From: Girardia tigrina
Lineage: Eukaryota
Assembly (NCBI GenBank): GCA_001938485.1
Contig: MQRK01248235.1
Span: 1-64,000, forward strand
DNA: 64,000 bases
Direction of reading: 5' to 3'
In this document: positions 40,824 to 41,690 of the stretch, piece by piece
Numbering within the stretch: position 1 is the first letter of the stretch
Layout: each line of letters starts with the position of its first letter
Notes under the pieces: generated by a model
Databases searched by the model: none
Told to the model about the DNA's origin: nothing
Seen by the model: the letters and a program-made list of their open reading frames with translations, nothing else
Made by a program: the position numbers and the translations under genes

Positions 40824-41690
40824 TGTAATAATATTACTTATTACTTTTAAAATAGCAAAACTAAGACTTGTTATTAATTTGTTTTAATGTATCAATTGTA
40901 ATAAATAGACACAAAGCGGGAATTTGAATTATGATGGATACAGTGATCAGCCATCATGTCAATGTATTGCATAGTTAACATTTTATAGTATGTATCAATA
41001 TTATATATAACAAAAGTTGTTGTTTACAAGTTTATGAATAAAGACATGTATAACATGCTATTTTCAAACACAAGATTTTAAATGAAGATACAACAATATA
41101 TTTGAAACACAACTTACATAGTTGTAAACAAAATATAGTCAAAAACACGTGTAACAAAATCCTTATAGTTTAAATCTCTTAAAGCAGTGATTACAATTTT
41201 CCCAGAACCCAAAACATTTACACATATTGGATTGAAACAAGTTAATCTCAAAGAAGGAAACATTTCAGGTTCATAATGATTCGGAGTAGTCTTTTTCAAA
41301 GCATTGATATTTATGGGCTCACCATAATCACACGTCACTGTAATAGATTGTATACTGACATTGGTGATATTGAATGGTAAAGTGGATGCATAAATTGGTT
41401 GTTTACAACCCATTATTCAACATTTTCCATTGCGGAAGAATATGATGGTATAATCTGGAAAGTGTAAAACACCTTGGCACGGTTTAATACCAAAATGAAG
41501 GTCTTTCAGACAATCTTCAGTAAATCCTTTATAATTGATATTACGCAGCATTTGTTAAAAATGAATGTTACTGTATCCATCATAATTCAAATTCCCGCTT
41601 TGTGTCTATTTATTACAATTGATACATTAAAACAAATTAATAACAAGTCTTAGTTTTGCTATTTTAAAAGTAATAAGTAATATTATTACA
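40824..41690. repeat. Perfect 121-bp inverted repeats (40824-40944 and 41570-41690) enclosing the TBP-like gene
   Basis: Base-by-base comparison by eye found no mismatch between the arms. Confidence 0.92.
41114..41551 (-). pseudogene. TATA-binding-protein-like gene (145 codons, one in-frame TGA at 41417-41419)
   Basis: MLRNINYKG...TIIFFRNGKC*IMGCK...SIQSITVTCDYGEPININAL..YEPEMFPSL...PICVNVLGSGKIVITALRD aligns to both TBP repeats (TALIFSSGKMVCTGAK; IQNMVGSCD..PIRLEGL; YEPELFPGL; IFVSGKVVLTGAK). Confidence 0.82.

Follow-up and report, generated by a model that had tools for sequence, protein, structure and literature searches.

The element and its genes

The window, the whole 64,000-nucleotide stretch of Girardia tigrina DNA analysed here, contains an element with long terminal inverted repeats (TIRs), which carries genes for a TBP-like protein and for a protein-primed PolB (pPolB). 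We refer to elements of this kind as type A. Its features are as follows.

39837..39842: left target-site duplication (TSD), 6 bp, matching the right one at 5 of 6 positions
39843..48159, + strand: whole element, 8317 bp, a polymerase/TBP-type member of a Polinton-like family
39843..40987, + strand: left outer TIR, ~1.1 kb, common to the capsid/integrase-type elements of the family
41114..41551, - strand: TBP-like gene, compact, 145 codons, with an in-frame TGA at codon 45; PF00352, E 3e-9
41808..42581, + strand: ORF2, divergent from the TBP-like gene, with an in-frame stop at 42066-42068
42721..43131, + strand: ORF3, Cys/His-rich
43264..46671, + strand: pPolB gene, PF03175 above cut-off
46936..48159, - strand: right outer TIR, which ends the element
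48160..48165: right TSD, 6 bp

Measured against Polintons/Mavericks, the element has a TIR of fitting length (~1.1 kb, within 100–1500 bp), a fitting TSD (6 bp, within 5–8 bp) and a protein-primed PolB. The rve integrase, ATPase, protease and capsid are absent, and its length is 8.3 kb as against 13–25 kb. No match was found in it to the ATPase, integrase, capsid, protease or exonuclease-like proteins of metagenome contigs. The 6-bp TSD is matched at 6 of 6 positions in another copy, L063.

The TBP-like, ORF2, ORF3 and pPolB genes occur in two arrangements among type A elements, and also in shorter subsets. The block of ORF3 and polB is either colinear with the block of TBP and ORF2 or inverted (L052 and L058 versus the window, L038 and L048). 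Free flipping of this block was considered and rejected: the inverted copies have a single junction in common, and the two arrangements are for that reason read as subfamilies. The shorter forms contain either TBP and ORF2 only or ORF3 and polB only, and these classes look like a swarm of deletion derivatives. Three copies (L370, L375, L376) are bounded by TIRs and have ORF3 and polB without TBP. A third subfamily (L359, L341, L344) ends after TBP and ORF2; there the arm motif described below is present in two diverged copies that form a palindrome, followed by an AT-rich spacer and the TIR.

An inverted repeat around the TBP-like gene

The TBP-like gene of the window lies between two inverted-repeat arms.

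40792..40825, + strand: 17-bp tandem duplication, the second copy private to this locus; covered by a contig from DNA run X2
40824..40944, + strand: left arm, a private inverted copy of 41570-41690 that replaces ~9 bp of the sister copies
40945..41569: 625-bp core, in the same orientation as in sister copies
41570..41690, - strand: right arm, the ordinary upstream region of the family's TBP-like gene and donor of the left arm

The first-pass annotation had described a cassette bounded by perfect 121-bp inverted repeats, and its account of the geometry holds. By sequence comparison in the window, 40824-40944 is the exact reverse complement of 41570-41690 over all 121 nt (100% identity), with 625 nt between. 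The left arm is situated within the inner edge of the left outer TIR. The 17-bp tandem duplication noted beside it is exact (40792-40808 and 40809-40825), and the last 2 nt (TG) are common to the left arm. The right arm ends, as described, at an offset of 19 from the ATG of the TBP-like gene (41551), with 18 bases between. The shared upstream motif that had been placed in the right arm is indeed there, and it is present in both arms (40880 on the + strand, 41617 on the - strand) and also at 42574. The annotation had found no TSD around the insert. Treating the entire insert as flanked by a 6-bp TSD requires a particular pre-insertion site, whose pattern has no match in the genome, and that reading was dropped.

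The contrast drawn earlier between identical arms and mismatched outer TIRs is also real. The outer TIR pair is 92.9% identical over 267 nt, or 94% over 253 columns, and at this divergence the probability of no mismatch in 121 positions is 1e-4 to 9e-4. Because the arms are perfect while the outer TIRs are 93–94% alike, the arms are much more recent than the insertion of the element.

The left arm is private to one copy

Is the two-arm structure a property of the family? The G. tigrina genome (1.43 Gb in 255,254 contigs) yielded 6501 candidate copies, of which 40 were scored. Absence of the left arm from all other copies, together with a lack of antisense reads, had been named in the first-pass annotation as evidence against its own proposals, and the first of these is what was found: in each of the 39 other scored copies the alignment starts no earlier than query position 247, beyond the left arm. 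A single arm is present in 29 of 29 fetched sister loci, and arm matches are single in 24 of 24 cases among 36 longer stretches. Of 29 loci picked with ORF2, 21 have one arm, 7 have none and 1 has two, these in direct orientation and derived from a tandem duplication. The patterns of the inner and outer junctions have one match each in the 1.43 Gb, with one mismatch allowed. In place of the window copy's second 17-mer and left arm, sister copies have ~9 bp.

These data bear on the proposal that the arms bound an invertible segment kept homogeneous by recombination. An invertible DNA cassette was rejected, since the left arm is not conserved across copies and the core is not found in both orientations among sister loci. 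The annotation had suggested looking for both orientations in other family copies; the usual orientation is present throughout the 29 fetched loci, except in one rearranged copy, L022. A nested TIR transposon or MITE was also rejected, there being neither a TSD nor dispersed two-arm copies.

A functional role for the arms, whether as an invertible segment or as an antisense or hairpin regulator of the TBP-like gene, is largely refuted and in our estimate scarcely credible. In its favour is geometry alone, the motif in the left arm being directed at the gene from its 3' side. The two-arm form is, however, present in a single copy among all those examined, the core is unflipped in sister loci other than L022, and no recombinase is encoded in the 14 frames scanned. 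The convergent promoter copy that the annotation had envisaged is there as an arrangement of DNA, but the element copy is decayed and the gene that this promoter copy points at is interrupted by an internal stop.

A probable templated origin for the left arm

Two variants, at 41599 and 41689, are present in both arms of the window; among the other copies, the first is in 1 of 29 and the second in 0 of 27. As both arms carry these near-private variants, the left arm was copied from the window copy's own right arm. The second of them makes the TG match that is common to the duplication and the donor. The left arm is likely to be a templated inverted insertion and not an invertible cassette, as judged from sequence comparison. 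A template-switch product was the other origin put forward in the first-pass annotation, and it is supported by the private arm, the ~9 bp deletion, the 1–2 bp microhomology and the use of the element's own right arm as donor. In such a scheme ~9 bp would have been lost, after which the DNA end would have re-primed 17 bp upstream, giving the tandem duplication. It would then have jumped by the 2-bp TG match to the opposite strand ~865 bp away, where ~120 bp of the TBP upstream region would have been copied before rejoining. The left arm is without likely function, and is likely to be an ordinary one-off mutation.

Which process could leave such a scar? Template switching at the replication fork (FoSTeS/MMBIR) is compatible with the distance of the donor. 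The scar also carries features of synthesis-dependent microhomology-mediated or theta-mediated end joining (SD-MMEJ/TMEJ), namely microhomology, a small deletion and template taken from flanking DNA. In the portion of a review that covers SD-MMEJ, this pathway, like the scar, combines a small deletion with direct and inverted templated pieces and 1–2 bp of microhomology, and its template is typically within ~30 bp of the break (PMC7407515). That distance fits the 17-bp piece only. Unlike the insertions covered there, the 120-bp piece has a donor 625–865 bp away, beyond the range given.

Alternatively, the arm may date from before insertion at this site, when the element, replicating itself by protein priming, switched template. 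The third subfamily, in which two copies of the same motif form a diverged (~86%) palindrome downstream of ORF2, points to reverse copying on an earlier occasion. We nevertheless regard this origin as improbable: the two variants nearly private to the window copy are in both arms, the arms are far younger than the TIR pair, and no sister insertion has the left arm.

Less probable still is an assembly error, in a high-copy repeat, that accounts for some or all of the left arm. Perfect identity of the arms and the short-read style of the assembly would suit such an error. Two DNA runs (X1 and X2) contain the element's left insertion junction, and support was judged on contigs, with a 31-nt rule for bridging. 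On the point raised in the first-pass annotation, that reads should span both arms, the support is partial. A 76-nt contig from X2 (100% identity, depth 69.8) covers 40778-40853; under the 31-nt rule it counts as bridging the duplication junction, and it continues for 28 nt of the arm beyond the duplication, which speaks against a pure assembly error. In X1 the duplication junction (40810-40819) has no cover, and the inner junction of the left arm (bin 40950-40959) has none in the contigs of either run, which leaves room for an error there. The microhomology and small deletion at the junctions count against one.

Two other loci also have short inverted inserts of their own, each copied from element DNA close by and 98% identical to its source. 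These are L027:594-656 and 843-905 (63 bp) and L024:1002-1086 and 1654-1738 (85 bp).

The TBP-like protein

The TBP-like gene is standard in the family, with 1731 candidates in the G. tigrina genome. A natural relative (P0002) is predicted to have the TBP fold (model pLDDT 91.6; TM 0.68–0.77 to solved TBPs). The proteins form a compact family of 99 clusters at E up to 1e-10, mostly of 140–200 aa; the protein here is ~145 aa. In metagenome contigs the gene is found beside ATPase, integrase and protease genes. In two of these (L076, L113) pPolB is also present, so that TBP, ATPase, integrase and pPolB are on one molecule and the contigs represent whole Polintons. The L076 contig also contains a ubiquitin-conjugating-enzyme gene (L076:225-719).

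The TBP fold is known from DNA viruses: giant viruses and herpesviruses have viral TBPs, and MELD viruses have a TBP-labelled gene. In the sections concerned, the label on the MELD virus gene is a name in a figure legend only (section 3.4, Fig. 5; PMC8502044 and its preprint). The giant-virus and herpesvirus TBPs differ from the compact ~145-aa family described here, which is 9–19% identical to its viral fold matches. No relative of the family was found in IMG/VR.

Complementary type A and type B elements

The Polinton genes that are missing from type A are found on other elements with the same ~1-kb ends, here termed type B. These carry ATPase, integrase, predicted minor and major capsid, protease and exonuclease-like genes. 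The integrase label is solid, and that of the protease comes from the Pfam match of a relative. The minor capsid and exonuclease genes are presumably such, on the basis of position and resemblance. Support for the major capsid label is weak, consisting of a Pfam DJR-like match (E 0.039) in 1 of 8 relatives and an Atlas lead; there was no PDB sequence match, and the fold predicted without an alignment had a pLDDT of 30.8. The genome contains 705 capsid candidates.

None of the 12 type B elements that are closed on both sides contains pPolB or TBP. An outside capsid query was used to select 31 contigs, of which 7 show a closed TIR-module-TIR unit with no type A gene inside, and 5 more closed type B units are among 20 further stretches. 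Closed units are up to ~9 kb in length, and longer where interrupted. In the 31 capsid-picked contigs the exonuclease/protease end adjoins a TIR in 17 and polB in 0. The neighbour after the exonuclease is a TIR in 29 of 30 loci; before the ATPase there is a TIR in 19 of 30, ORF2 or TBP in 0 and no recognisable neighbour in 11. After polB there is a TIR in 12 of 30 loci, a convergent ORF2 in 9 and a type B gene in 0. With an outside polB query, a type B gene again follows polB in 0 of 30, and 18 of 30 are without a recognisable neighbour (the number of such polB loci ranges from 7 to 18 of 30). The ATPase follows ORF2 in 0 of 29 loci. In four capsid-picked stretches (C185658, C239909, C240499 and L321) a piece of type A is near type B genes, and these are read as nested or adjacent insertions.

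In a tree of 30 type B and 20 type A rows the TIR cores interleave, with 12 changes as against 15.8 when shuffled and two starred mixed sets. The start of a small ORF, short and with ~77% identity, is common to both types, and its site is the position of the capsid module in undivided relatives. The TSDs of two type B elements with both tips match at 3 of 6 and 4 of 6 positions. Best identities are similar for both types (93–97%), with hundreds to thousands of candidates each. In having complementary segments with common termini, the A/B pair shares a property of multipartite viruses.

Types A and B are likely to be complementary halves of one virus-like transposon. Polymerase and TBP would come from type A, integrase and capsid from type B, and each type would act in trans on the common ends. 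We consider it probable that the scar is a single-copy change, likely the product of one event after insertion with two template switches, lying within what is likely the polymerase half of a Polinton that has split into complementary elements with shared ends.

Could both types instead be non-autonomous deletion derivatives moved by a rare, unsampled full-length Polinton? The several shorter classes and the fragmented assembly are consistent with this, and nine Polintons without capsid, protease and ATPase are on record in the part of the survey that treats them (PMC4028283). The loci inspected number tens per type, against 412 to 2129 candidates for each gene in the 255,254-contig assembly, a sample that a rare full-length master could escape, and samples picked by DNA are biased to the subfamily of the query. 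We judge this explanation unlikely, though it deserves appreciable weight. An A–B junction is present in no sample, both types are abundant and have similar best identities, and their gene sets are jointly full with no overlap except for the short small-ORF start.

The 22-nt terminus of the element has 3413 exact matches in the genome, and miniatures that have such ends but no genes could draw their integrase from type B elements. At L146:3879-6255, the pPolB of another Polinton family adjoins a type B element fragment.

A TATAAAC box on type B elements

The motif TATAAAC occurs 11 times on the type B sense strand and 0 times on the antisense strand; shuffled sequences have a mean of 1.6, and 0 of 200 reach 11. 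TATAAGA is absent from the type B sense strand. In type A, TATAAAC occurs 0 times on either strand, which is weak by itself, given an expected count of <1 per strand. It precedes the exonuclease gene in 28 of 38 cases, the ATPase in 24 of 28 and the major capsid in 22 of 29, these being related and not independent copies, and it precedes TBP in 0 of 48 distinct upstream stretches. In L076, L090 and L105, it precedes 9 of 19 listed gene starts. TATAAAC thus marks the genes of the capsid half and not those of the polymerase half.

From this correlation, the TBP-like protein would read the TATAAAC box before type B genes. A tentative model, to which we give somewhat less than even credence, is a bipartite Polinton in an animal genome, in which the compact TBP of type A switches on the TATAAAC-boxed integrase, packaging and capsid genes of type B in trans, and both types have spread to hundreds or thousands of copies with no full-length parent.

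Relation to known elements and viruses

Polintons/Mavericks share with the family described here long TIRs, a 6-bp TSD, pPolB, integrase, a packaging-type ATPase, an adenain-like protease and predicted capsids, according to the descriptive sections of several accounts (10.1101/2023.08.22.554363, PMC4028283, PMC6431247). As given in two of these, they are 13–25 kb in length and have the core genes together on one element (10.1101/2023.08.22.554363, PMC6431247), whereas here the genes are divided between same-end elements of 8–9 kb. The nearest parallel to such a division that we noted is the bipartite Bombyx mori bidensovirus (Bidnaviridae), which has two segments with related termini and a Polinton-derived pPolB on one of them (PMC4061559). 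It differs in having ssDNA, a parvovirus-type capsid, and polymerase and major capsid on one segment; integrase is unmentioned in the relevant portion of that paper (PMC4061559).

A Maverick expansion has been noted in Dugesia, the excerpt concerned giving no structure (10.64898/2025.12.11.693146). Segments or TATA are unmentioned in the corresponding excerpt of PMC11161782. No split Polinton and no TBP study was found in the extracts of the literature on Polinton TBP and on bipartite, segmented or multipartite Polintons; Repbase and the supplementary table of PMC4028283, which lie outside this scope, may list similar partial elements.

The family around the scar matters more than the inverted repeat itself. 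If the model is true, it would represent an integrating dsDNA virus-like element in mid-transition from one genome to several, the situation that theories of multipartite viruses address, with each segment represented by many dated copies. The pairing of a TBP on one half with a box to match on the other also makes for a simple test of whether the element runs its own late transcription. Pipelines that require five Polinton genes per TIR pair, as in the procedure excerpted from one survey, would miss the polymerase half (10.1101/2023.08.22.554363).

Other features of the window

Immediately left of the element, at 39265-39416, are two 74-nt arms that are 86% complementary and 4 nt apart. A further TIR-bounded element of ~6.7 kb is present at 14760-21452; its inner part recurs, as a partial copy, at 58443-63232. 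At 59094-59564 there are MITE-like arms of 165 nt, 98% complementary and 141 nt apart; the other copy of the host repeat (near 19130) is without them. We take the sequences at 27835-28221 and 34893-35342 (- strand) to be mariner-like transposase fragments, and those at 53897-57882 to be fragments of retrotransposon gag, RT and integrase. No literature match was found for the repeated peptide encoded from 30242. The reading frame at 30242-30610 (+ strand) has a signal-peptide-like start and four 9-residue repeats with flanking basic residues, and its product presumably resembles a neuropeptide precursor.
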